Source: Patescibacteria group bacterium (lineage in GTDB: Bacteria > Patescibacteriota > Minisyncoccia > Phycocordibacterales > Phycocordibacteraceae). Taken from it: a DNA stretch of 64,000 nucleotides. The number at the start of each line of letters is the position of its first letter. Position 1 is the stretch's first letter. Location: the NCBI GenBank assembly GCA_040384725.1, contig JAZKIS010000002.1:7682-71681 (forward strand), given 5' to 3'. The notes beneath the pieces are model-generated. The model had not been told where the DNA came from. It ran no database searches and saw only the letters and a list, made by a program, of their open reading frames with translations. Positions 42,493 through 53,763 of this stretch are shown piece after piece. Made by a program: the position numbers and the translations under genes.

Positions 42493-42502
42493 CTTGTGTA
42501 AG

Positions 42503-43036
42503 CTATTGCTTACTGGCACGTACTTTTGCTGCAAACTCTGCAATCTCCTCTTGCGACATCAAGGTGATTGAGAGATTCTCGGCGGCCTGCATTATCTTCT
42601 TATCGGCCTCATCCTTTTCACTGAGGTCTGCAACGACTATCTCGAGTTCTGCATGATACTTCCAGTCCTCGCTCCACTTGAGCGCAATTTCTACCTCTCC
42701 ATACTTAAAATTAGTTCTCTTCTGCGTACCCGCTATGATCTGCTGAGGCTCGCTGATGGCATGGCATATTGATCGCATGGTCTCATACTGATCTGCAGGA
42801 AAGGGCACTTCGAACTCCTGAAAAGACGAGCCTTCTCCGAGCGCGTTCAGCTTGAGGGAGAGTACACCCGTGTTCTTTGAAAGATTGTTAACTACTTTCA
42901 AGAGCTTATCGGGGAAGATGATATATTCTACTTCTTTATCATCTTGGCCGATCAGTGTCCCTTCCTGTGTCAGCTTTTCGAGGAGAGCAGTATAGCTATC
43001 CTCGGTTAACAGCGTGCGGTGTTCTATCTCGTACAT
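42503..43036 (-). CDS. CYTH-like (triphosphate tunnel metalloenzyme/CyaB-like) domain protein, paralog 1
   Basis: N-terminal YEIEHRTLL (ExExK-type start) and C-terminal acidic EVEIALKWSEDWKYHAELEIVV strands typical of the CYTH tunnel. Confidence 0.5.
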   Translation of the reverse strand: MYEIEHRTLLTEDSYTALLEKLTQEGTLIGQDDKEVEYIIFPDKLLKVVNNLSKNTGVLSLKLNALGEGSSFQEFEVPFPADQYETMRSICHAISEPQQIIAGTQKRTNFKYGEVEIALKWSEDWKYHAELEIVVADLSEKDEADKKIMQAAENLSITLMSQEEIAEFAAKVRASKQ

Positions 43037-43039
43037 ACG

Positions 43040-44296
43040 CTAGATAGTAGCATTCGACTTCCTACACACGACAGCGTTAACCCTATGTGAATCGTCTCCG
43101 GCGCGCGCAATAACTTCAAAGCCTTCTTTTTTTAGGTTCTGGACCATGCGCCCATAGGTCATATATGCCTTGCGCCTTCGCTGTCTTGCCTCATCGGGCT
43201 CAAAGTGGGTGATGAAATCGAATATGAAGAGACCGTTGTTTTTGAGGACACGGGAGTGTTCCTTGATGAAAAGATTTACGTACGCCTTCCCGACATGAGA
43301 AATGAGGACACCCCGGGAACAGACGAGATTGAAATACTCATCCTCATAAGGAAGATCGAGACTATTTGCGAGGATGTAGTGCCTCATCGATGAGTCTTTA
43401 TCGGCGTGCTCGAGCATTCGAGGAGAGATATCCACCGCCACTACCTGATAGCCCTTGGTATTAAGCTGCTTTGCAATTACGCCAGTCCCACAACCGGAAT
43501 CTAATGCGAGCTCAGAGTTACCGCTCTTAGTATCTGGCACCTGCGCTTCTATAAAATCAAGGAAACGTGAATATCCATCCTCGATATTCACGTAATGAGA
43601 CGGGTCCTTAATCACAGTGTCCCAGGTTTCAGCTTCTTTATCCCAGTTATCTCTTACTTCGCTGGCTTTGAAATAGCTTGATTCCTTCAGACGCTTTATG
43701 GCGTCAGTGATCTTTGGCAGGTCCGCATCATAGAGCTGCGCACTGAGGATGAACGCGGTCACCTGACCCCTTGAAATTTGCAGCGAACGAGCTATCTCTG
43801 CATGGACAGCAGAGAGCTCTACCATGTCGGGTATGAACTTCTTTGCAAGGTCGCTACTCTTGAATATAACGTTCATTGAAATCTGACCGTTTCTTACAGC
43901 GAAGTTTATCTCGCTCACACATGGCTGCTTACGCGAGTTTGGATCAGCAAGGATTATCGTCGCTGACCTAGTCAGTGGCTCTGCCTGCAGCCTCTCGATC
44001 ACACGCGATACCTGATCAATGCCGTTCATGGCACGCATGAGCGCATAATAGTTGCGCCCTGTTGCAGGATCTCCGGAAGGCGAGTAGATCCTGCGCATGT
44101 AGTCAAGATACTCGCTGCCGAAAAGGTCGATGTACTGGGGAGTTTCGATCTCAAATGCGTTTGCGTATGATATTTCTAGGTTGCGAATCTCGAGAAAAGG
44201 CTCGCTATCATCGACCTTGTTTCCTTGAATTGCAGTACGGATAGCCTGAAGCCAAGCACCCTCAAGGGTATTCTTAACGGCATTTGAAGATTTCAT
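43040..44296 (-). CDS. fusion: thymidylate-synthase-fold (ThyA/dNMP hydroxymethylase-like) N-domain + class I SAM methyltransferase C-domain
   Basis: N-half: QVSRVIERLQAEPLTRSATIILADPNSRKQPCVSEINF...KSSDLAKKFIPDMVELSAVHAEIA parallels ThyA [53 protein letters not shown] (catalytic Cys retained). C-half: motif I LDSGCGTGV, motif II-like FNLVCSRGVL. Confidence 0.6.
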   Translation of the reverse strand: MKSSNAVKNTLEGAWLQAIRTAIQGNKVDDSEPFLEIRNLEISYANAFEIETPQYIDLFGSEYLDYMRRIYSPSGDPATGRNYYALMRAMNGIDQVSRVIERLQAEPLTRSATIILADPNSRKQPCVSEINFAVRNGQISMNVIFKSSDLAKKFIPDMVELSAVHAEIARSLQISRGQVTAFILSAQLYDADLPKITDAIKRLKESSYFKASEVRDNWDKEAETWDTVIKDPSHYVNIEDGYSRFLDFIEAQVPDTKSGNSELALDSGCGTGVIAKQLNTKGYQVVAVDISPRMLEHADKDSSMRHYILANSLDLPYEDEYFNLVCSRGVLISHVGKAYVNLFIKEHSRVLKNNGLFIFDFITHFEPDEARQRRRKAYMTYGRMVQNLKKEGFEVIARAGDDSHRVNAVVCRKSNATI

Positions 44297-44298
44297 GC

Positions 44299-44913
44299 TT
44301 AGCTATGGTCTAGGTACTTTCGGTACTGCTTATCCTCGTCGCGCATATGGCGGAGGATAAGGTTACGAATAAATTCGGACCTATTAATTTTATACGTGAA
44401 GCTTGCCCAATCCAAATAGTTTTCTATCTCCTTTGTGAGTACGATATTGAACTTCACGACCGGCCTTGCACCGTTGTTATTCAGGAAGTCATTGAGAATA
44501 TCCGCGAGGTTGGAATCGTCATACTCGACCACCTTGAGGAGAGGAGAGGTTAGGCCTGCAAGGAAGGAGTCCTTCGGCTTGCCGCCTTTCTTTGGACCTG
44601 GAGCCTTCTTAACGAGGAAGAGGGTAGGCTTATTCTTCGAAAGCCCGAGCGTAACCTGATGTCCAACACTAAAGCTCGTAACCGTTCCTTCGATTATGAC
44701 CACATCTGAGGCGAGAATGGAGGCGACGACGCTGTTGTAAACCTCTTCGCGATCAAGAGTACTGACCGCCTTCTGCTCTACAAGCTTGATTGCTTCTTCG
44801 AGCCAATCACGACTGATACTATGCCCCATCTCCTTAATAAGGGAGCATATCTGCCTATAGTCATCCTTGTAGGTTTCCAGCTCGGAAGTTGAGCAGGCGA
44901 AGTGGACTTTCAT
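44299..44913 (-). CDS. fusion: DNPH1/nucleoside 2-deoxyribosyltransferase-like domain + C-terminal ribbon-helix-helix
   Basis: KVHFACS...ASDVVIIEGTVTSFSVGHQVTLGLSKNKPTLFLVKK parallels DNPH1 ALYFCGS...QADVVVAEVTQPSLGVGYELGRAVAFNKRILCLFR. C-terminus KFNIVLTKEIENYLDWASFTYKINRSEFIRNLILRHM is a beta-alpha-alpha RHH pattern. Start at MKVHFAC. Confidence 0.55.
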   Translation of the reverse strand: MKVHFACSTSELETYKDDYRQICSLIKEMGHSISRDWLEEAIKLVEQKAVSTLDREEVYNSVVASILASDVVIIEGTVTSFSVGHQVTLGLSKNKPTLFLVKKAPGPKKGGKPKDSFLAGLTSPLLKVVEYDDSNLADILNDFLNNNGARPVVKFNIVLTKEIENYLDWASFTYKINRSEFIRNLILRHMRDEDKQYRKYLDHS

Positions 44914-44987
44914 GCTGTTTTTATAACACAAGTGTGTATCATATGCAATATTGTGTATATATGTAAGTGTGTATACCATACATACTT
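44914..44987. promoter_or_regulatory. AT-rich divergent promoter region with three direct TGTGTAT repeats (candidate RHH operator)
   Basis: TGTGTAT at 44933, 44952, 44968 (spacing 19 and 16 nt); also ACACAagTGTGT inverted element. Confidence 0.4.
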
Positions 44988-46502
44988 ATGAACCTTAAAG
45001 GCAGACGTAGGGTTACTGGCCGCAAAAACCTAGGAACTGGGGAGGCAGTAGCTGTCCTTATGGTCGGGTTTGGCCCGCACGCACAGCGTATCCATTTCCC
45101 AGCCATTCAAAAGAATGGAGCAGAATTCAATGCATACGTAGCTGCGATCGTTGAGCTTCAGTCAAAGGAGGAGGATGTACGGTCGTATATAGCAGGCCTG
45201 TCATTAGCAGTGGAGCCAGAGCTTCTGTTTCTACCAGATAGCCAGGCAGGGTCTGAACTTAGTCAAGCATTCAGAAGTAAGCTCGACCTTTATGTACAGA
45301 CTTTGGGTATCTCTGCAGTTATCATTGCTACCGAGCCTCTCGCGCACATTCCGTATGCACGCTGGGCACTTAAGAAAGGTCTTCATGTTCTCATGGACAA
45401 ACCGATCTCGACGAAGAAGAATGCGTCTTGTGATATAGCCGCTGCACGCGAAATAGCTAAAGATTATGATGACTTGCTCGCACTTCTTAAGCGCTCTAGG
45501 CTTCAGAACCCTTCCTTAGTGTTTGATCTTGTTGCGCAGCGCAGATTCCATCCTGCCTTTTTACTGCTGCAGAGTCTTGTGACAGAAGTAGCGGAGCGGA
45601 CAGGCATGCCCATATCATCAGTGTCGTCGGTCCATAGTGACGGACAATGGCGCATGCCTGATGAGATTATTGATATCGACTACCATTCCTACAACCAGGG
45701 ATACGGGAAGTGTTCCCATTCCGGATATCATTCACTCGACATACTCTCTTGGCTCATTGAGACGACCACACCGGATTCGAAAAGGCCCGATGCGATAGAT
45801 GTTTTCAGCAACTTCATGCGCCCGCAATCGTTCTACAAGCAGCTAACACGAAATGATTATCAGAAAATATTTCCTGACTACAGCTCAGTCTCTGTAAGGT
45901 CTGATAGGAAGCTGCAAACTAAGTTCACGGGCATGGGGGAGATCGATGCTCTCCTCTCACTAACCTTCAAGAAGAAAGGAGTACCGATGACGTTAGCATC
46001 CATAAGCCTCCTCCATAACGGCACTTCACAACGCGGATGGGTTAATTCTAAAGATAGAGACCTCTACAAGGGAAACGGCAGAATTCGTCATGAATCCCAC
46101 TACATCGTTCAAGGGCCTTTTCAGGCAATATCCTTTGTCTCGTACCAGAGCAAGGAATACGGCCAGTCGCGGAATGATATATACGGCATGGGAGGGGAGC
46201 ACCACCTCGATGTGCATGTATTCAGGAATGACTCGCTATTTCCTGACTGGGAGGCCCGGAGAACGTATACGTTCAAAGATATCTCCGCAGTAGAGAGTGG
46301 CGGTGCATCACAAGGCCATCAGGAGGATGCCAGACGCCTGTGCATCAAGAATTTCTTTGAGCAGGTGCACACCGGAAATCTAAACTCGAACTCCTCCCTT
46401 GAAGATCACCGCACGTCTGCACATCTGCTTAGTGCAGTATATGAATCAGCATGCAAGAGGCTGGGGACTGAGAACCCCTTGGTTACCTTACAAACTGTAT
46501 AG
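44988..46502 (+). CDS. Gfo/Idh/MocA family NAD(P)-dependent oxidoreductase
   Basis: Rossmann N-domain VLMVGFGPHAQRIHFPAI...IIATEPLAHIPYARWALKKGLHVLMDKP typical of Gfo/Idh/MocA; start uncertain (alt 45060). Confidence 0.65.
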   Translation: MNLKGRRRVTGRKNLGTGEAVAVLMVGFGPHAQRIHFPAIQKNGAEFNAYVAAIVELQSKEEDVRSYIAGLSLAVEPELLFLPDSQAGSELSQAFRSKLDLYVQTLGISAVIIATEPLAHIPYARWALKKGLHVLMDKPISTKKNASCDIAAAREIAKDYDDLLALLKRSRLQNPSLVFDLVAQRRFHPAFLLLQSLVTEVAERTGMPISSVSSVHSDGQWRMPDEIIDIDYHSYNQGYGKCSHSGYHSLDILSWLIETTTPDSKRPDAIDVFSNFMRPQSFYKQLTRNDYQKIFPDYSSVSVRSDRKLQTKFTGMGEIDALLSLTFKKKGVPMTLASISLLHNGTSQRGWVNSKDRDLYKGNGRIRHESHYIVQGPFQAISFVSYQSKEYGQSRNDIYGMGGEHHLDVHVFRNDSLFPDWEARRTYTFKDISAVESGGASQGHQEDARRLCIKNFFEQVHTGNLNSNSSLEDHRTSAHLLSAVYESACKRLGTENPLVTLQTV

Positions 46503-46559
46503 CCTGGCAACTACTATGTAACTTCGCCAGGCAACAGCATCAAAAGAAAGGAGGAGACG

Positions 46560-47276
46560 ATGATCTTTACAGTTGGATTTGAAGGCGTAAACCGCACAGG
46601 AAAAGGGACTCAGATTGGTCTGCTCCGCACTAAGCTGGAGCTCCAATCGATCCCCACACTCGTACTACGGGGTAATGGATCGCGCGAAGCACAGGGAAGT
46701 CACAAAGGTGATCCGCTCTCTGCTTGGTGGGATAAGGCTAACGACCTCCGGGATGAGATGTTTGACGCAGGGTGGTGGGTGCGCGCGAGCGTTAGGCTCG
46801 CGCGTGAATACCTGGCATGGCGCGAGTATATCTTTCCGCGCTTTCTCGAGCGCACTGGTAACACCGACGGGATTATCCTAGTGGACAGGACTGTCCTATC
46901 TGCGTTCATGTTGCTACTTGAAAATGGCGACACGGACTGGAGAAAGCTGTATCCGCCCCATGCAGGACCAAGAGGTACTGAGATCTCCGGCGAGCTAGTG
47001 TGCCCTGATCTTATCTTTAACTTCATTGCCCCAGCAGCGGCCTTGCTCCCTCGGTTAGCACCTGACGATCCGAAGCATGACTTCAGAAAGGGGCTGATCG
47101 AGCGGAACGCTGGTAAGTACGCCATAGCGTCCGCACTAGTACCCCCTGATGTGCGCCGCAGAATCCATGAGTTGGACGCTTCGCTCACTGAGGAAGTCTT
47201 GCATGAAAGCATCGTGGCAACCCTTGGGTGCTATGCACCAAAACGTATTGGAGACGCGCTTCATGCGAATCCATAA
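46560..47276 (+). CDS. thymidylate-kinase-like P-loop nucleotide kinase with divergent P-loop
   Basis: IFTVGFEGVNRTGKGTQI aligns to the dTMP kinase I(A/T)FEGxDGSGKTTQ; LID-like basic region; 238 aa. Confidence 0.5.
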   Translation: MIFTVGFEGVNRTGKGTQIGLLRTKLELQSIPTLVLRGNGSREAQGSHKGDPLSAWWDKANDLRDEMFDAGWWVRASVRLAREYLAWREYIFPRFLERTGNTDGIILVDRTVLSAFMLLLENGDTDWRKLYPPHAGPRGTEISGELVCPDLIFNFIAPAAALLPRLAPDDPKHDFRKGLIERNAGKYAIASALVPPDVRRRIHELDASLTEEVLHESIVATLGCYAPKRIGDALHANP

Positions 47277-47281
47277 CAACT

Positions 47282-47316
47282 TTCACCCTCCGAAGAGTAT
47301 CGGAGGGTGAACTTTA
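47282..47316 (+). terminator. hairpin after the kinase gene (weak T-tract)
   Basis: TTCACCCTCCGA-agagta-TCGGAGGGTGAA perfect 12-bp stem then CTTTAG. Confidence 0.4.
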
Positions 47317-47338
47317 GAAATCGTGATAACTTGATTAT

Positions 47339-47908
47339 ATGAATGAATACGAGGTAAAGCTCACTGGCCTAGACAAGGCATCTGTAAGAGAAGTGCTCGC
47401 GCGAACCGGCACACTAGAGAACGCGGAGCATGTACAGCACAATCTCGCCTATCACCTTCCCCCAGGAAGGGAGATCGAGGGAGGATGGCTTCGCATCAGG
47501 AACGAGAACGGATGCATAGCGATGAGCCTTAAGATAATCGCGAGCGACCGCATAGAGGATCAATTCGAATACCGTCTTGTAGCGAGCAGCATGGAAGAAG
47601 CGAGAGGGTTCCTTGAGCTCATGGGCGCTACACAGAAAGCCGAACAGGAAAAGAAAAGGGAAATATGGCGTGTGGACGATTGTGAAGTGGTAATAGATGA
47701 GTGGCCATTCCTCGAAGCGTATCTCGAAGTTGAAGGGCCTTCAGAAGCATCGGTTAAGGCTGTAACGGAGAAGCTTGGTTTTGATTACGCATCAGCACGT
47801 GTCTGCTCAGCCTCACGGCTCTATACTGAAAAGTACGGTGTACCGGAGAAGACAGTAAACGACGAGACTCCTATTCTTATATTTGGGATGGATAATCCCT
47901 TCACCTAG
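47339..47908 (+). CDS. CYTH-like domain protein, paralog 2
   Basis: MNEYEVKLTGL start; EIWRVDDCEVVIDEWPFLEAYLEVEG acidic tunnel strands; shares motif layout with the 42503..43036 gene. Confidence 0.5.
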   Translation: MNEYEVKLTGLDKASVREVLARTGTLENAEHVQHNLAYHLPPGREIEGGWLRIRNENGCIAMSLKIIASDRIEDQFEYRLVASSMEEARGFLELMGATQKAEQEKKREIWRVDDCEVVIDEWPFLEAYLEVEGPSEASVKAVTEKLGFDYASARVCSASRLYTEKYGVPEKTVNDETPILIFGMDNPFT

Positions 47909-49423: not shown

Positions 49424-50500
49424 ATGAAAGATTCTTCTCCAGTTTGGTCTTGCAACGAATGGGATCCTCTCGAGGAAGTGATCGTTGGCAGCGTCGAGGG
49501 AGCGATTGTGCCTGAGCTGGATGAGGCAGTGGATGCCATCATGCCCGAGCATGCAGAATGGTTCTTCAGGGAGTATGGAGGAAAGCCCTTTCCCGAGGAC
49601 ATGATTCAAAAGGCGACGGTCGAGCTCGACAACCTCTCGAACGTTCTTTCTGATCTTGGCGTAACGGTCAGGCGGCCTGAGCCAATGGCGTTCTCAGAAG
49701 AATACAAGACGCCGTGGTGGAAAAGCTACGGCCTCTATGCTGCCATGCCTCGTGACGTGTTTATGGTCTTCGGGGATACGATCATTGAAGCCCCGATGGC
49801 ATGGAGGAGCCGCTACTTCGAGCATTTCTCGTACCGAACACTCATGAACGAGTACTTCGATAAGGGCGGCCGCTGGCTTGTTGCTCCTAAGTCAACCATG
49901 GGTGCCGGGTTCTACGATGAGTCGTATGATTCAAACAACCCAACCACTAAGGACGGCAAGAAGCGCTTTGTTATTACAGAGAACGAGATAGCGTTCGACG
50001 CGGCAGATTTCATTCGCTGCGGAAAGGATGTGTTTGTTCAGAAGAGCAACGTGACGAACGAGAAGGGCATCGAGTGGGTGCGTCGGCATGCCGGCTCAGA
50101 ATTTACGATCCATGAAGTGGAGTTCGGCGACTCGCATCCGATGCATATAGACACGACTATCGTCCCCCTCGCGCCTGGAAAGATCCTCATCAACCCTGAG
50201 TGGGTTAAGAAGCTTCCGCCTATATTTGATTCGTGGGATGTGCTCGTTGCGCCGCCTCCAACCAAGTCTGAGGATAAGGCCCTCTATTTCTCTAGCGACT
50301 GGCTTACGATTAACACGCTTAGCGTTGACGAGAAGCGTATCATCGTTGAAGAACAGGAAACGCCGCTCATTGAGGCGCTCAAGGGGTGGGGATTTGAACC
50401 GATTCCTGTGCCGTTTAGGAACTTCTACCCCTTCGGAGGATCGGTACACTGCGCAACCCTCGATGTCCGCCGTAAGGGTATCCTGAAGTCCTACTTCTAA
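49424..50500 (+). CDS. amidinotransferase (glycine/inosamine-phosphate amidinotransferase family, AGAT/StrB1-like)
   Basis: Collinear match to vertebrate AGAT: SCNEWDPLEEVIVG, AMPRDVFMVFGDTIIEAPMAWRSRYFE, FDAADFIR (catalytic Asp), HPMHIDT (His), GGSVHCATLDVRR (catalytic Cys). Confidence 0.85.
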   Translation: MKDSSPVWSCNEWDPLEEVIVGSVEGAIVPELDEAVDAIMPEHAEWFFREYGGKPFPEDMIQKATVELDNLSNVLSDLGVTVRRPEPMAFSEEYKTPWWKSYGLYAAMPRDVFMVFGDTIIEAPMAWRSRYFEHFSYRTLMNEYFDKGGRWLVAPKSTMGAGFYDESYDSNNPTTKDGKKRFVITENEIAFDAADFIRCGKDVFVQKSNVTNEKGIEWVRRHAGSEFTIHEVEFGDSHPMHIDTTIVPLAPGKILINPEWVKKLPPIFDSWDVLVAPPPTKSEDKALYFSSDWLTINTLSVDEKRIIVEEQETPLIEALKGWGFEPIPVPFRNFYPFGGSVHCATLDVRRKGILKSYF

Positions 50501-50586
50501 CCGAACTCCGGTTCAGGCCGTGTGGTATCATTCGGCCAACAAAAGTTTATCCGCCCTAGAGACTTACGATATTAATTTCGACGCAT

Positions 50587-51432
50587 ATGGACATGGACGA
50601 AGCATTTAGCTCCATAGATCTTGTAACGCAGTGTCTTACCGACAAGAAGCGTACGGATAAGTTTCAAACGGTTATCGATCGGGTCGTAAAGCCGGGAGAT
50701 GTAGTGCTCGACTCCGGCACGGGTTCAGGTGTGCTTGCCCTCATGGCGGCGAGGGCTGGAGCTAAGAAAGTTTTCGCGATTGAGTACGACCCCTATATTG
50801 CGAAGCTCGCAGCGCAAAGCGTTCTCCTGAACGGCTTCTCTGATGTTGTCGACATCGTGGTCGGTGACGTGAGGAACGTTAATTTCCCGAAGGATACGGT
50901 CTTCGATGTCGTTATCATGGAAATGCTCACCACCGGCATGATTGATGAGTACCAGGTGTGGACCATGAATAATCTCCATGCGAAGGGATACATAACTAAG
51001 GAGACGCGTCTCATACCGCAGAGACAGGATACGTATATCTCTCTCGCTAACGCGGACTTCACTAACTACGGCCTCACCATGCGTATGGTGCGCCACATCT
51101 GGGAGCCGCACAGCACGATCGATTTGAGCATTCTTACGAAGACGGAGCTATTGAATTCGATTGCGTTCAATACTACGAATTCACTATCTTCCAATACGAT
51201 TACGGTCTTTACGGCGGAAAAGGCAGGAACGGTCAACAGTGTCTATATTACGAGCAAGACCATACTCGACGAAGAGACCGAGGTCGGTGATACGGCTGCC
51301 CTTAACGCACCGGTGGTGTGGCCGCTCGAGAAGGATATTGAGGTTGAAAAGGGCGATTCGCTCGAGGTTGCGATCAATTACAGTTTTGGCGGCGGTTTCC
51401 GCAACTTCAGCGTTCAGGTCCGCAAACTATAG
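50587..51432 (+). CDS. class I SAM-dependent methyltransferase with PRMT-like (arginine/guanidino N-methyltransferase) motif layout
   Basis: VVLDSGTGSGVLALMAARAGAKKVFAIE vs PRMT motif I [27 protein letters not shown]; post-I acidic, DIVVGDV, FDVVIMEMLTTGMIDE vs VDIIISEWMGYCL double-E loop; no THW loop seen. Confidence 0.55.
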   Translation: MDMDEAFSSIDLVTQCLTDKKRTDKFQTVIDRVVKPGDVVLDSGTGSGVLALMAARAGAKKVFAIEYDPYIAKLAAQSVLLNGFSDVVDIVVGDVRNVNFPKDTVFDVVIMEMLTTGMIDEYQVWTMNNLHAKGYITKETRLIPQRQDTYISLANADFTNYGLTMRMVRHIWEPHSTIDLSILTKTELLNSIAFNTTNSLSSNTITVFTAEKAGTVNSVYITSKTILDEETEVGDTAALNAPVVWPLEKDIEVEKGDSLEVAINYSFGGGFRNFSVQVRKL

Positions 51433-51447
51433 GGTATACTTTTTTCA

Positions 51448-53064
51448 ATGGATTTATTGTGTCCTTGGGAAGCTCCGCAATATTTGATCTTCTCGTCAAA
51501 TATTCCTACGCTCCATTACTATTCTCACCTGGTCGCCATTCTTGCGGCGGTAGTGTTCGCATTCGCACTCATCGGTCGCTTCCGAGAAAGCAGCACCGTG
51601 CGCTGGCTCTTCGTTACAATCTTCCTCTTCTCTATCTGGACGGCGATCGACACGCTGCTGTGGGCATCCAACAGGCCTGACCTGGTTCTATTCCTTTGGA
51701 ATACACAGATACTGCTCGAAGCACTCTTCTACGCTTCTGCATTCTGCTTATCCTACGCATTCATTACCAACAAGGATCCGGGAGCGATTAACGTGTCACT
51801 TCTGGCCGTCCTGGTTCTGCCTATCATTGCCGTTATACCGACGGGCCATGCGCTGGAAGGGATAGATATTGCATACTGCAATGCGCTTGAGACGCCATTC
51901 ATTATTTTCTACACCTATGCGGTGCAGATACTGATCGCGCTTTCCATCCTGTTCCTAACCTTTAGAGAGTCGGCCCGTTCGCAGGGCCGCGCGCTACCCA
52001 TACAGCTCTTTGCTGCAGGCATGATCATCTTCCTGATCGCGTTCTCTTCGGGCAATATCATCGGAAGCATTACGGATGACTGGGAGCTGGCTCAGGCCGG
52101 TCTTCTGGGAATGCCTATATTCATCGGATTCCTCGCCTACACAACGGTTAGGTTTAGGACATTCAACGTTAAGATCCTTGGAGCGCAGGCGCTCGTGGTG
52201 TCACTCTGGCTCGTTACGTTCTTCCAGCTTTTCGTAAGGTCTGTCGAGAACATGCGACTCATCATCGGCGTGAATCTGGTGCTCTTCAGTATCATCGGGT
52301 ATTTCCTTATAAAGGGCGTGCGCAGGGAGGTCCAGCAGCGCGAACGAATTCAGGTGCTTGCCGCAGATCTTGAGAAGGCAAACAAGCAGCAGGTCACCCT
52401 TATCCACTTCATCACGCACCAGATCAAGGGCTTCGTTACTAAGTCACGCAACATATTCTCGCTTATGCGTGAAGGTGATCTCGGTCCGATCCCTGAAGCG
52501 ATGAAGCCTATGATCGAGGAAGGATTCCGCTCTGATACGAAGGGCGTGACGACTATTCAGGAGATCCTCAACGCCGCTAACATCAAGAGCGGGAAGGTGA
52601 CCTACAGCAAGGAGCCGTTCGATCTGAAGGCGCTTATCGATGAGATTCTCCAAGATCTCAAAGCCGCCGCCGACGCTAAAGGTCTCGTCCTCCAGACAAA
52701 CACCGGCGATACGCCTCTCATGTACCCAGGAGATAAGGCGCAGCTCACGAACGCGCTTAAGAACCTTATCGACAACTCGATCAAGTACACCATGCAGGGT
52801 GAGGTTCGCGTTACGCTTGCACAAGAGGCCGGCAAGGCTCGCTTCACCGTAGAGGACACCGGTGTCGGTATCACTCCCGAGGATATGGCGCATCTCTTTA
52901 CCGAGGGCGGTCACGGAGCGAACTCAGCGAAAATAAACGTTGAGTCCACAGGCTTCGGTCTCTACATCGTGAAGAACATCGTCGAGGCGCATAACGGCAA
53001 GGTCTGGGCGGAATCAGACGGGGAGGGCAAGGGTTCCCGATTCATCGTTGAGCTTCCGGTATAG
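51448..53064 (+). CDS. sensor histidine kinase with 7-8 TM N-terminal domain (orphan, no adjacent response regulator)
   Basis: H-box LIHFITHQIKGFV, HATPase_c N/G1/G2 boxes (LKNLIDNSIKYT, EDTGVGI, STGFGL). Confidence 0.85.
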   Translation: MDLLCPWEAPQYLIFSSNIPTLHYYSHLVAILAAVVFAFALIGRFRESSTVRWLFVTIFLFSIWTAIDTLLWASNRPDLVLFLWNTQILLEALFYASAFCLSYAFITNKDPGAINVSLLAVLVLPIIAVIPTGHALEGIDIAYCNALETPFIIFYTYAVQILIALSILFLTFRESARSQGRALPIQLFAAGMIIFLIAFSSGNIIGSITDDWELAQAGLLGMPIFIGFLAYTTVRFRTFNVKILGAQALVVSLWLVTFFQLFVRSVENMRLIIGVNLVLFSIIGYFLIKGVRREVQQRERIQVLAADLEKANKQQVTLIHFITHQIKGFVTKSRNIFSLMREGDLGPIPEAMKPMIEEGFRSDTKGVTTIQEILNAANIKSGKVTYSKEPFDLKALIDEILQDLKAAADAKGLVLQTNTGDTPLMYPGDKAQLTNALKNLIDNSIKYTMQGEVRVTLAQEAGKARFTVEDTGVGITPEDMAHLFTEGGHGANSAKINVESTGFGLYIVKNIVEAHNGKVWAESDGEGKGSRFIVELPV

Positions 53065-53109: not shown

Positions 53110-53763
53110 TCAGGGTTGTTGGTTAGTTTCTTTCGTTACGCGCTTGCGTTGCAGCGCCGTGAGTTTCGGGAGCGTTCTTGAGGATTGGTACTTCCCCCAG
53201 ACACGCTCCCAATCCTCGCGGAAGCACTCGAGGACGAGCACGTCGACGTAGGCGCCTTCGTGAAAATCATGGGCCTTCCTGCGACCGATGATCTTATAAC
53301 CGCACTTCAAGAGGTGTCCGAGGCTCGGCGCATTGAACGCCTTCACCTCGGACAAGAGCTTGCGCAGCCCGAGGATCTTGAACGCGTGATACTGCATCCA
53401 GAGCTTCGCTTCAGTACCGTATCCTTTCTCGCGCGCGTTATCAGCGCCGAGCACGGATCCGGTTGTAGCATGTCCCGAGGGCCACTCCACATCGTGGATG
53501 CCCGCGTGTCCGAGATAGCGGTACTCCCGACCCGTCTCCGTGTCCTCGTGCGCGAGGACCGCGAAGACTTCGTGCACGCCTTTGCCCTTACGGAGCTTTT
53601 CGATCCATTCGTCGAAGTCTTCGGGGTAGTAGGGCGGGCGCTGGAGCGTTCCGCTGATCGCGGTGCGCCGGTTGGGCCACGGAAGGTACTCCGGGCCGTA
53701 CATGCGCTGCATAAGGGCCAGCGACATGGTTATGCCTTCATACGCGATGATATGCGTAGCCAT
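53110..53763 (-). CDS. GNAT family N-acetyltransferase (RimJ/RimL-like)
   Basis: Acetyl-CoA motif A REKGYGTEA; 217 aa; SD AAAGGAAC. Confidence 0.75.
   Translation of the reverse strand: MATHIIAYEGITMSLALMQRMYGPEYLPWPNRRTAISGTLQRPPYYPEDFDEWIEKLRKGKGVHEVFAVLAHEDTETGREYRYLGHAGIHDVEWPSGHATTGSVLGADNAREKGYGTEAKLWMQYHAFKILGLRKLLSEVKAFNAPSLGHLLKCGYKIIGRRKAHDFHEGAYVDVLVLECFREDWERVWGKYQSSRTLPKLTALQRKRVTKETNQQP

Follow-up and report, generated by a model that had tools for sequence, protein, structure and literature searches.

Introduction

Known ThyA-fold modifiers of cytosine nucleotides come from two antibiotic pathways and from phages, whose enzymes yield hydroxymethyl-, methyl- or hydroxy-dCMP. 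The pre-replicative hydroxymethyl-dC pathway of phage T4 comprises a dCTPase (gp56), a dCMP hydroxymethylase (gp42) and a dNMP kinase (gp1), of which gp42 is a cytosine-specific ThyA-fold enzyme that has an Asp at the position of ThyA Asn177 and modifies C5. The mildiomycin (MilA/MilB) and bacimethrin (BcmA-D) pathways pair a hydroxymethylase with a protein of the DNPH1/MilB fold, and the bacimethrin pathway adds a methyltransferase and a kinase. DNPH1 (Rcl) is a 5-hydroxymethyl-dUMP N-hydrolase and recognises a 5-hydroxymethyl pyrimidine deoxynucleotide, and the phage 5-hydroxy-dCMP synthases RB69 gp48, DLP3 gp80 and HY126 AfhB are also short cytosine-directed ThyA-fold enzymes. Here we describe an operon with related components at positions 42503-44913 (minus strand) of a 64,000-nucleotide stretch of DNA from a Patescibacteria group bacterium (GenBank assembly GCA_040384725.1, contig JAZKIS010000002.1, positions 7,682 to 71,681 of the forward strand), hereafter called the window. 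Its three genes encode a DNPH1-like protein with a probable ribbon-helix-helix (RHH) domain, a fusion of a ThyA-like domain with an S-adenosylmethionine (SAM) methyltransferase, and a CYTH protein (CYTH1).

As predicted, the cluster would share with the T4 pathway the same three functions and the same logic. It differs in residing in cellular Patescibacteria genomes and not in the viral contigs and phage genomes searched, in the fusion of the putative hydroxymethylase to a SAM methyltransferase, in a triphosphatase of the CYTH type, in a dedicated sensor-regulator and in the lack of a glycosyltransferase; the kinase here is similar to thymidylate kinase (TMPK) or cytidylate kinase (CMK) and is missing from most loci. 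Incorporation of its product into DNA is, by analogy with T4, a candidate fate. Unlike in the mildiomycin and bacimethrin pathways, the catalytic Glu/Tyr/Asp triad is absent from the DNPH1-fold protein, which also bears a probable DNA-binding domain, and a predicted nucleoside triphosphate (NTP) pyrophosphatase is integral to the operon. Our preferred reading, in which our confidence is evenly balanced and which draws on sequence and predicted structure, is that the operon would encode a T4-like route by which a cytosine nucleotide is modified as the monophosphate, with a sensor-regulator in control. A first-pass annotation of the window, made without database searches, had taken the gene combination to be undescribed, and our searches of the available literature likewise turned up no account of the operon.

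Results

A conserved three-gene operon in Patescibacteria

The same three-gene order was found in about 20 Patescibacteria loci, which were drawn from contigs encoding family members and from genome and metagenome scans. In the window the genes are translationally coupled, with intergenic gaps of 2-3 nt, and across the compared loci the DNPH1-like gene always lies directly upstream of the fusion gene, the stop and start codons overlapping or adjacent. The DNPH1-like regulator is the best-conserved product of the operon, with 70-81% identity across loci against 52-62% for the fusion, and the third slot is taken by CYTH1 orthologues in 10 loci and in 6 by an unrelated protein of ~128 aa. The fusion family comprises 67 clusters, mostly of about 415 aa, and the regulator family 116 clusters, which have no precomputed Pfam domain. 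With about 65-116 clusters among 5.8 billion the operon is rare, its distribution is patchy and its named sources are Patescibacteria/Paceibacterota.

The first-pass annotation had treated six genes, from CYTH1 to a second CYTH gene (CYTH2), as a single module. The coordinates and strands of all six open reading frames were confirmed, but the conserved unit consists of three genes; the divergent Gfo/Idh/MocA-family (GFO) oxidoreductase and kinase genes are separable from it and CYTH2 lies beyond a hairpin. The predicted domain content largely held for the ThyA fold, the SAM methyltransferase, the DNPH1 fold, the GFO oxidoreductase and the CYTH proteins, with weaker calls for the kinase and the RHH domain. 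The start listed for the DNPH1-like frame, 44979, had to be moved to M23 at 44913, where all orthologues begin.

A low GC content, also noted at first pass, was borne out by windowed GC: the three-gene core is the lowest 2.4-kb stretch of the whole window (starting at 42601, 0.472 versus a mean of 0.556, standard deviation 0.029). GC was 0.46-0.49 across 42500-46250 and ~0.55-0.59 in the flank carrying lysS and an ABC transporter, while the kinase gene (0.545) and CYTH2 (0.50) were nearer to the background. Operon GC was below that of the flanks in 13 of 15 loci. The gene neighbourhoods are variable, and resolvase, transposase and excisionase-like helix-turn-helix (HTH) genes were found near the operon in two loci (L003 and L004). 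Our preferred reading is of a horizontally mobile, self-regulated pathway operon.

No homologue of the fusion or the regulator was found in IMG/VR viral contigs or in GenBank phage genomes, and none of the fusion, the only protein searched there, in plasmids; a phage origin was rejected on these results. A fold search of BFVD with the fusion model returned single-domain matches only, apart from one ambiguous 484-aa entry (A0A6J5LU22, 'AdoMet_MTases domain containing protein' of an uncultured Caudovirales phage) that aligned over 386 columns with a root-mean-square deviation (rmsd) of 20 Å; it might represent a viral counterpart in which the two domains are oriented differently.

The fusion protein and its predicted cytosine specificity

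The ThyA-like domain of the fusion matched Pfam Thymidylat_synt with 36.3 bits (cut-off 24.3) and the NCBIfam archaeal-type thymidylate synthase TIGR03283 with 81 bits (E=6e-23), far under the equivalog cut-off of 174.55, and the methyltransferase domain matched Methyltransf_11 with 70.9 bits (E=1.5e-19). When a family profile of the ThyA-like domain was compared with the PDB, MilA ranked first (8e-11), before true thymidylate synthases (~1e-8) and T4 dCMP hydroxymethylase (3e-3). MilA was also the best PDB relative in a Foldseek search with the AlphaFold (AF2) model of the fusion (6e-12). This model had a pLDDT of 90.7 and a pTM of 0.90, the latter implying a fixed two-domain arrangement, and AfhB superposes on it with a TM of 0.73 and an rmsd of 3.7 Å.

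Residues were read against the substrate determinants of the ThyA fold described for MilA (PMC5175136) and for phage ThyA homologues (PMC13326640). Pro125 and Cys126 are invariant in 23 sequences and align on the catalytic Cys of MilA and thymidylate synthase. The invariant Asp157 aligns on MilA Asp186 and on the PFN-motif Asn of thymidylate synthases (ThyA Asn177), which argues for cytosine, not uracil, as the base. The C5-modified pyrimidine pathway suggested by the first-pass annotation thus stands in general, with the base narrowed to cytosine by Asp157 and by the ranking of MilA as top relative. Arg110 and Ser147 occupy the positions of MilA Lys133' and Ala176 and follow the pattern of deoxy-specific enzymes, which makes dCMP a likelier substrate than CMP; a divergent clade has Lys at 110. 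The protein does not have the marks of a true thymidylate synthase converting dUMP to dTMP, given Asp157, Arg110 and Ser111 at the positions of Asn177, Arg126' and Arg127' and the TIGR03283 score below its cut-off.

Asp149, invariant in an FKSSD motif, is the equivalent of ThyA Asp169. The phage 5-hydroxy-dCMP synthases carry D169N and use a flavin, and since the fusion family retains the Asp, the signature of flavin 5-hydroxylases is absent and this chemistry was rejected. Tyr83 corresponds to the Tyr of the AYG stretch of MilA, read as ThyA Tyr94, and is consistent with a retained catalytic machinery. A near-invariant Lys123, three positions before the Cys, falls by counting at ThyA Leu143 in a loop that is 4-6 residues shorter than in ThyA and MilA; being polar and not acidic, it would weakly favour a hydroxymethyl product.

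In the methyltransferase half, the SAM motif LDSGCGTG and Asp289 are invariant and the SAM motifs are intact. Its fold matches include 3l8d, 6f5z and 5ufm, and it resembles small-molecule methyltransferases, a likeness that carries no pointer to its substrate.

Alternation of CYTH1 with a MazG-like protein in the third slot

CYTH1 was borderline as a single sequence, scoring 23.1 bits against the Pfam CYTH cut-off of 23.2, while its family profile matched the CYTH protein PH1819 (4.4e-6). It carries an ExExR variant of the signature (EIEHR) along with conserved basic and acidic tunnel residues. The ~128-aa protein that replaces it, encoded for instance at L001:9233-9619, has invariant EExxE and ExxD motifs, and its profile matched the MazG-type pyrophosphohydrolase YpjD (1.7e-7) and dCTP pyrophosphatase 1 (DCTPP1; 1.2e-4). 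The two proteins are mutually exclusive in the same slot. The role of CYTH1 is hinted at most strongly by this alternation of two unrelated triphosphate hydrolases, from which we infer that CYTH1 turns a nucleoside triphosphate into its monophosphate. An earlier proposal by Aravind and colleagues treats MazG-like and CYTH triphosphatases as equivalent NTP-clearing enzymes in phages with modified DNA (PMC7824862).

CYTH2 is a clear member of the superfamily (Pfam CYTH 50.1 bits, E=3.8e-13, EYEVK motif), and superfamily membership is all that it has in common with CYTH1. The two had been described as inverted paralogues marking a cassette boundary or an inverted duplication; their identity is 18% over 83 alignable residues (E=1.0), too low for a recent pair, and no DNA inverted repeat brackets the island. 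Relatives of CYTH2 are neighbours of an ABC transporter in L008, and in L010 and L011 they occur a few kb away from the operon. A perfect hairpin, which is the probable end of the oxidoreductase-kinase transcription unit, separates the kinase gene from CYTH2. Given the hairpin, the transporter-side relatives and the weak likeness to CYTH1, CYTH2 is most simply, and probably, a backbone gene outside the system.

The DNPH1-like protein as a probable nucleotide sensor

A single-sequence search with the DNPH1-like protein gave a weak match to Pfam Nuc_deoxyrib_tr (E=0.02), whereas a profile of 32 family members matched rat and human DNPH1/Rcl over residues 3-144 (E=1.7e-6). Its AlphaFold model (pLDDT 84) had DNPH1 as the top PDB match in Foldseek (E=6e-7, target-normalised TM ~0.8), so that the assignment made at first pass holds for the fold, by profile and by structure though not by single sequence, but not for the hydrolase activity. 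Besides the fold, the two proteins share length, topology and the phosphate-binding Ser (Ser80, equivalent to Ser87 in rat and Ser98 in human). The motif SFSVGHQ aligns on DNPH1 PSLGVGYE, which places Gln86, invariant in all 32 aligned sequences, on the nucleophile Glu (rat 93, human 104). DNPH1 Tyr24 is replaced by His4 and Asp80 by a variable residue, and an invariant Asp36 stands at the position of the base-contacting DNPH1 His56.

The human DNPH1 variant E104Q is inactive yet still binds intact hydroxymethyl-dUMP, and MilB reads cytosine through a Glu at the position of DNPH1 His56 (PMC10603095). Because Gln86 is the same change as this substrate-trapping E104Q, and the Tyr and Asp are missing as well, a hydrolase role is unlikely. 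A classical glycosidase was accordingly rejected, the catalytic triad Tyr24/Asp80/Glu104 being absent, and the DNPH1-like protein is probably a sensor.

DNPH1 has no counterpart of the C-terminal extension found here. In the AF2 model these 55 residues form an extended segment followed by helices 161-174 and 178-192, and they carry an NRSEFIR motif that resembles that of NikR. Pfam RHH_1 matched 3 of 17 members (best E=0.031), and an hhalign comparison of the C-terminus with four classical RHH sequences was in register at E=5.5e-4 and a probability of 30%. A sequence-profile search of the PDB with the C-terminus returned no RHH match. The RHH control proposed at first pass is thus probable; the RHH call is statistically weak and has four indirect lines behind it, namely the AF2 helices, RHH_1, hhalign and a conserved operator.

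The putative operator lies in the divergent control region. A ~75-nt element upstream of the regulator gene is conserved in 14 loci whose proteins are ~55% identical, with the consensus GTGTGTAT-N-ATATACATAC-TTACATATATACACAATATTGC...TGGTATAA. The window has four GTGTGTAT-type half-sites, located between -15 and -70. The palindrome occurs nowhere else in the window, and 100 shuffles gave 0 matches to it. Repeated half-sites at a promoter would fit the pattern of RHH operators, and since the array lies between divergent units, one regulator could control both. Across the window and the orthologous loci, the -10 element ends 6-8 nt ahead of the start codon and a Shine-Dalgarno sequence is missing, so the regulator mRNA is probably leaderless. 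From these sequence features we consider the regulator most likely to be a nucleotide-sensing autoregulator.

A distant paralogue of the DNPH1-like::RHH protein (L003:188-769, 24% identity over 204 residues, E=3e-6) is encoded on the contig of the L003 core operon, at a distance of ~7 kb and next to genes for a short-chain dehydrogenase and a Ppx/GppA phosphatase; other operons connected with nucleotides may use this sensor-regulator architecture too.

The oxidoreductase-kinase module and related loci

The divergent oxidoreductase matched the Pfam GFO_IDH_MocA Rossmann domain with 29.8 bits (cut-off 24), and no solved structure was matched by sequence in its C-terminal two-thirds. An exhaustive HMMER search placed it in a large, distinct subfamily of 480-500 aa, for which 661 representatives were counted at 50% identity. 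Fusion partners of its members include HD phosphohydrolase domains, NUDIX domains and a P-loop/TMPK-like kinase, and unfused members adjoin TMPK-like or APH-type kinases, NUDIX genes or a methyltransferase; the link to a kinase was seen in L040, L041, L042 and L044. L007 has the same divergent oxidoreductase and kinase arrangement as the window (40% and 35% identity) and most core loci have no such pair. We conclude that the pair is a separate, widespread module, in which the oxidoreductase probably tailors a nucleoside or nucleotide. One subfamily member, P0252 (805 aa), is fused to a pyridoxal phosphate-dependent Beta_elim_lyase domain, which does not fit a purely nucleotide-directed role of the family.

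The kinase scored below all family thresholds (Pfam Thymidylate_kin 18.4 bits versus a cut-off of 27, E=0.0019; TIGR00041 13.6 versus 83), and its PDB profile pointed to TMPK with E=0.006. The P-loop and a DR motif are conserved with the L007 orthologue (36% identity), a search for homologues in the word-indexed database returned the query alone, and a GGAGG Shine-Dalgarno sequence lies 6 nt upstream of the gene. The first-pass label of a thymidylate-kinase-like protein therefore stands for fold likeness, P-loop and DR motif; by the Pfam and NCBIfam cut-offs the protein is best described as a TMPK-like fold, not a thymidylate kinase.

In several other loci (L001, L010 and L016, and also L009, L012 and L015) the divergent unit differs from the oxidoreductase-kinase pair and consists of genes for three proteins: one like GTP cyclohydrolase II, a small one of ~108 aa that is rich in Cys, and one like cytidylate kinase. 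The zinc site of the GTP-cyclohydrolase-II-like protein is intact, with all RibA zinc cysteines; it is of a purine-ring-opening enzyme type, yet it lies beside a cytosine pathway. A cytidylate-kinase-like gene was thus found in the divergent unit of L001, L010 and L016 and a TMPK-like kinase in that of the window and L007.

An independent AT-rich locus (L040:3894-10116) encodes an HD::GFO fusion (812 aa), a 331-aa protein without a Pfam match, a TMPK-like kinase and a 208-aa ThyA-fold protein that combines the cytosine signature (Asp at Asn177) with the D169N 5-hydroxylase signature absent from the fusion family. NUDIX and dCMP-deaminase-family genes lie alongside, and DUF2357 and Fic genes flank the locus, which looks like a different, uncharacterised cytosine-nucleotide modification cluster. 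As the oxidoreductase, a TMPK-like kinase and a cytosine-type ThyA-fold protein occur together both here and in the window, this pairing arose at least twice, which supports a functional link. In two further loci the GFO homologue accompanies an APH-type kinase, followed in L042 (2527-7995) by a 1066-aa, defence-like SIR2_2-TPR protein and in L044 (514-4280) by a 399-aa Methyltransf_11 protein. The latter was rejected as a second fusion, being related in the methyltransferase domain only.

Features of the island and neighbouring genes

The features are collected in Table 1; the foreign segment spans roughly 42503-47311. An Rfam search of the intergenic regions returned a tRNA-Tyr as the sole match in the window and no riboswitch or other known RNA, and riboswitch control was rejected on this result.

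GC was also reduced, to about 0.49-0.53, around window positions 49424-51432. This region encodes a 358-aa protein without a Pfam match, whose C-terminus (...GGSVHCATLDVRR) resembles the catalytic-Cys end of enzymes of the amidinotransferase/arginine-deiminase type. Next come a PrmA/TRM5-like methyltransferase (50587-51432) and a protein with a histidine-kinase-type ATPase (51448-53064). A GNAT gene (Acetyltransf_3) immediately follows the CYTH gene of the P0006 locus, and the window has another such gene (53110-53763) at a distance of ~5 kb from its operon; their presence near both operons may be a coincidence.

Table 1. Features of the island in the window and of an alternative divergent unit in other loci
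Feature	Location	Strand	Remarks
CYTH1	42503..43036	-	177 aa, third gene of core operon
ThyA-fold::SAM-methyltransferase fusion	43040..44296	-	418 aa
Class I methyltransferase domain	43043-43654		aa 215-418 of fusion
ThyA-like domain	43682-44296		aa 1-205 of fusion
DNPH1-like::RHH protein	44299..44913	-	204 aa from M23, first gene of operon
Probable ribbon-helix-helix	44302-44466		aa 150-204
DNPH1-fold domain	44473-44913		aa 1-147
Divergent control region	44914..44987	.	half-sites and minus-strand promoter
-10 TATAAA	44920-44925	-	ends 6 nt before ATG
Half-site, GTGTGTAT-type	44932-44939		inside promoter spacer
-35 TTGCAT	44943-44948	-	
Half-site, GTGTGTAT-type	44951-44958		abuts -35 element
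Half-site, GTGTGTAT-type	44967-44974		
Half-site, GTGTGTAT-type, inverted	44978-44985		
Gfo/Idh/MocA-family oxidoreductase	44988..46502	+	504 aa; alternative start 45060
Thymidylate-kinase-like P-loop kinase	46560..47276	+	238 aa, oxidoreductase partner
Perfect 12-bp hairpin	47282..47311	.	between kinase gene and CYTH2
CYTH2	47339..47908	+	189 aa, canonical ExExK CYTH protein
GTP-cyclohydrolase-II-like/Cys-rich/cytidylate-kinase-like unit	L001:5415-7036, L010:5312-7344, L016:918-2794		

Discussion

The folds, the conserved residues, the gene order, the replacement of CYTH by MazG and the conserved operator suggest the following route, in which the substrates, the product, the methylated atom, the binding of the regulator and the fate of the product are our proposals. 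CYTH1, or the MazG/dCTP-pyrophosphatase-like protein in other genomes, would hydrolyse (d)CTP to (d)CMP and pyrophosphate. Judging from the residues, Cys126 of the ThyA-like domain would then attack C6, and a one-carbon unit from a folate-type cofactor would be transferred to C5 of the cytosine, most likely as a hydroxymethyl group and with dCMP a likelier substrate than CMP. The rigidly attached SAM methyltransferase would methylate this intermediate, candidate positions being the new hydroxyl and a ring or exocyclic nitrogen. As an accessory step, the divergent oxidoreductase-kinase pair may tailor the product, re-phosphorylate it or both. The DNPH1-fold domain probably binds the 5-substituted cytidylate but could not cleave it, with Gln in place of the nucleophile, and the RHH part probably binds the GTGTGTAT half-site array over its own promoter, so that both divergent units would be tuned to the level of modified nucleotide.

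Several observations weigh against this route. Lys123 is neither acidic, as in known hydroxymethylases, nor hydrophobic, as in methylases, and the different loop length makes the equivalence of the position uncertain. Ser111 stands at one of the two phosphate arginines of the partner subunit and the invariant Lys152 and Lys153 replace two residues of the folate pocket, so the cofactor may not be an ordinary folate. In the DNPH1-like domain the invariant His85, Glu75 and His4 could make an alternative catalytic site, and the RHH assignment, although consistent, is statistically weak and no firmer than probable. CYTH chemistries are diverse and include cyclases, polyphosphatases and thiamine triphosphatase, which leaves (d)CTP pyrophosphohydrolysis a guess from the MazG swap. 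Finally, most core loci have no adjacent kinase, and since the partner kinase of the oxidoreductase is an APH-type small-molecule kinase in some loci, the kinase in the window need not be a nucleoside monophosphate (NMP) kinase.

Among the alternatives, we consider it unlikely that the operon is an antiviral or interference module, which on induction would drain dCTP or, like prokaryotic viperins with their partner kinases, make a cytidine analogue that is toxic or terminates chains, the oxidoreductase-kinase pair modifying the sugar. An accessory, low-GC, patchy and tightly regulated operon with resolvase, transposase and excisionase-like HTH genes nearby in two loci would suit such a role, as would the HD and NUDIX fusions of the GFO homologues and their SIR2-TPR (L042) and Fic (L040) neighbours. 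An oxidoreductase with a phosphohydrolase and a kinase also recalls 3'-deoxynucleoside (cordycepin) synthesis, where Cns1 (oxidoreductase), Cns2 (HD phosphohydrolase) and Cns3 (kinase) form a similar trio acting on a nucleoside; the window has neither an HD nor a NUDIX gene, however, and the likeness is one of analogy only. Against a defence module, as envisaged at first pass, PADLOC models matched the generic methyltransferase domain (mad2, MTase_II) and none of the other five proteins, and no infection sensor or effector is recognisable. A ligand-sensing repressor of a biosynthetic operon fits metabolism equally well.

A free-base antimetabolite pathway of the bacimethrin/mildiomycin type is, in our view, improbable. 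Here 5-hydroxymethyl-CMP (hmCMP) would be made, the DNPH1-like protein would act as an N-glycosidase to free 5-hydroxymethylcytosine and the methyltransferase would O-methylate it, giving a bacimethrin-like thiamine antivitamin or an antibiotic precursor. The bcmABCD bacimethrin cluster has the same set of functions: hydroxymethylase, glycosidase, methyltransferase and kinase. Among solved proteins, MilA is nearest to the ThyA-like domain, and the known pathways cleave hmCMP with MilB or BcmB, which have the DNPH1 fold (PMC5175136, PMC10603095). However, the nucleophile Glu is an invariant Gln in 32 of 32 sequences with the Tyr and Asp of the triad absent, and the regulator family profile does not detect MilB or BcmB even at E<=10. 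An NTP pyrophosphatase and NMP-type kinases would moreover be superfluous for a free-base product, and Ser147 and Arg110 favour a deoxy substrate, in contrast to the Ala and Lys of MilA.

Patescibacteria rely heavily on nucleotide salvage, and a housekeeping role could run from dCTP through dCMP to 5-methyl- or 5-hydroxymethyl-dCMP and by deamination to a dTMP analogue, or could sanitise nucleotides scavenged from hosts or phages. The thymidylate-kinase-like kinase and the dCMP-deaminase-family gene in the related L040 cluster point this way, and two components have pool-sanitising enzymes, DCTPP1 and DNPH1, as their nearest characterised relatives. We nevertheless regard this as quite improbable: the operon is rare, patchy and compositionally foreign, unlike a core function; a ThyA-fold one-carbon transferase and a methyltransferase build modifications and do not remove them; the DNPH1-like domain has lost its hydrolytic residues; and a fused methyltransferase has no role in thymidylate synthesis.

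Least probable of these is a folate-independent C5 methylase, in which the ThyA-fold domain would only activate the nucleotide through Cys126 and the methyl group would come directly from SAM, as in DNA/RNA C5-methyltransferases: the domains are always fused with a predicted rigid packing, the ThyA-like domain is short (~205 aa), ending without the C-terminal segment that contacts folate in classical thymidylate synthase, and the two invariant lysines replace the pocket residues Leu172/Gly173, but the pterin-contacting Asp169 equivalent, which is lost in folate-independent flavin hydroxylases, is invariant here and equally short ThyA proteins occur on their own in archaea (TIGR03283).

Under the preferred T4-like route, the product could be destined for the cell's own DNA, for use as a nucleotide antimetabolite or for defence. 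We think it rather unlikely, in particular, that a Patescibacteria episymbiont installs a doubly modified cytosine, such as a methylated 5-hydroxymethylcytosine, in its own chromosome with a dead DNPH1 as the pool sensor. If the product does enter DNA, this would be pre-replicative hypermodification by a cell instead of a virus; if it stays out of DNA, it would likely be a new nucleotide antimetabolite from organisms that exploit other cells.

To the ThyA-fold cytosine-nucleotide modifiers described to date, the operon would add a version widespread in Patescibacteria genomes in which a second, methylating step is permanently fused. The swap between CYTH and MazG would be a clear case of non-orthologous replacement and give an orphan CYTH family a testable biochemical role, and the oxidoreductase-kinase module, with 661 representative families and no assigned function, gains a nucleotide-centred context. 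A natural E-to-Q DNPH1 serving as the ligand domain of a transcription factor would, in addition, be a ready-made biosensor for 5-substituted cytidylates.

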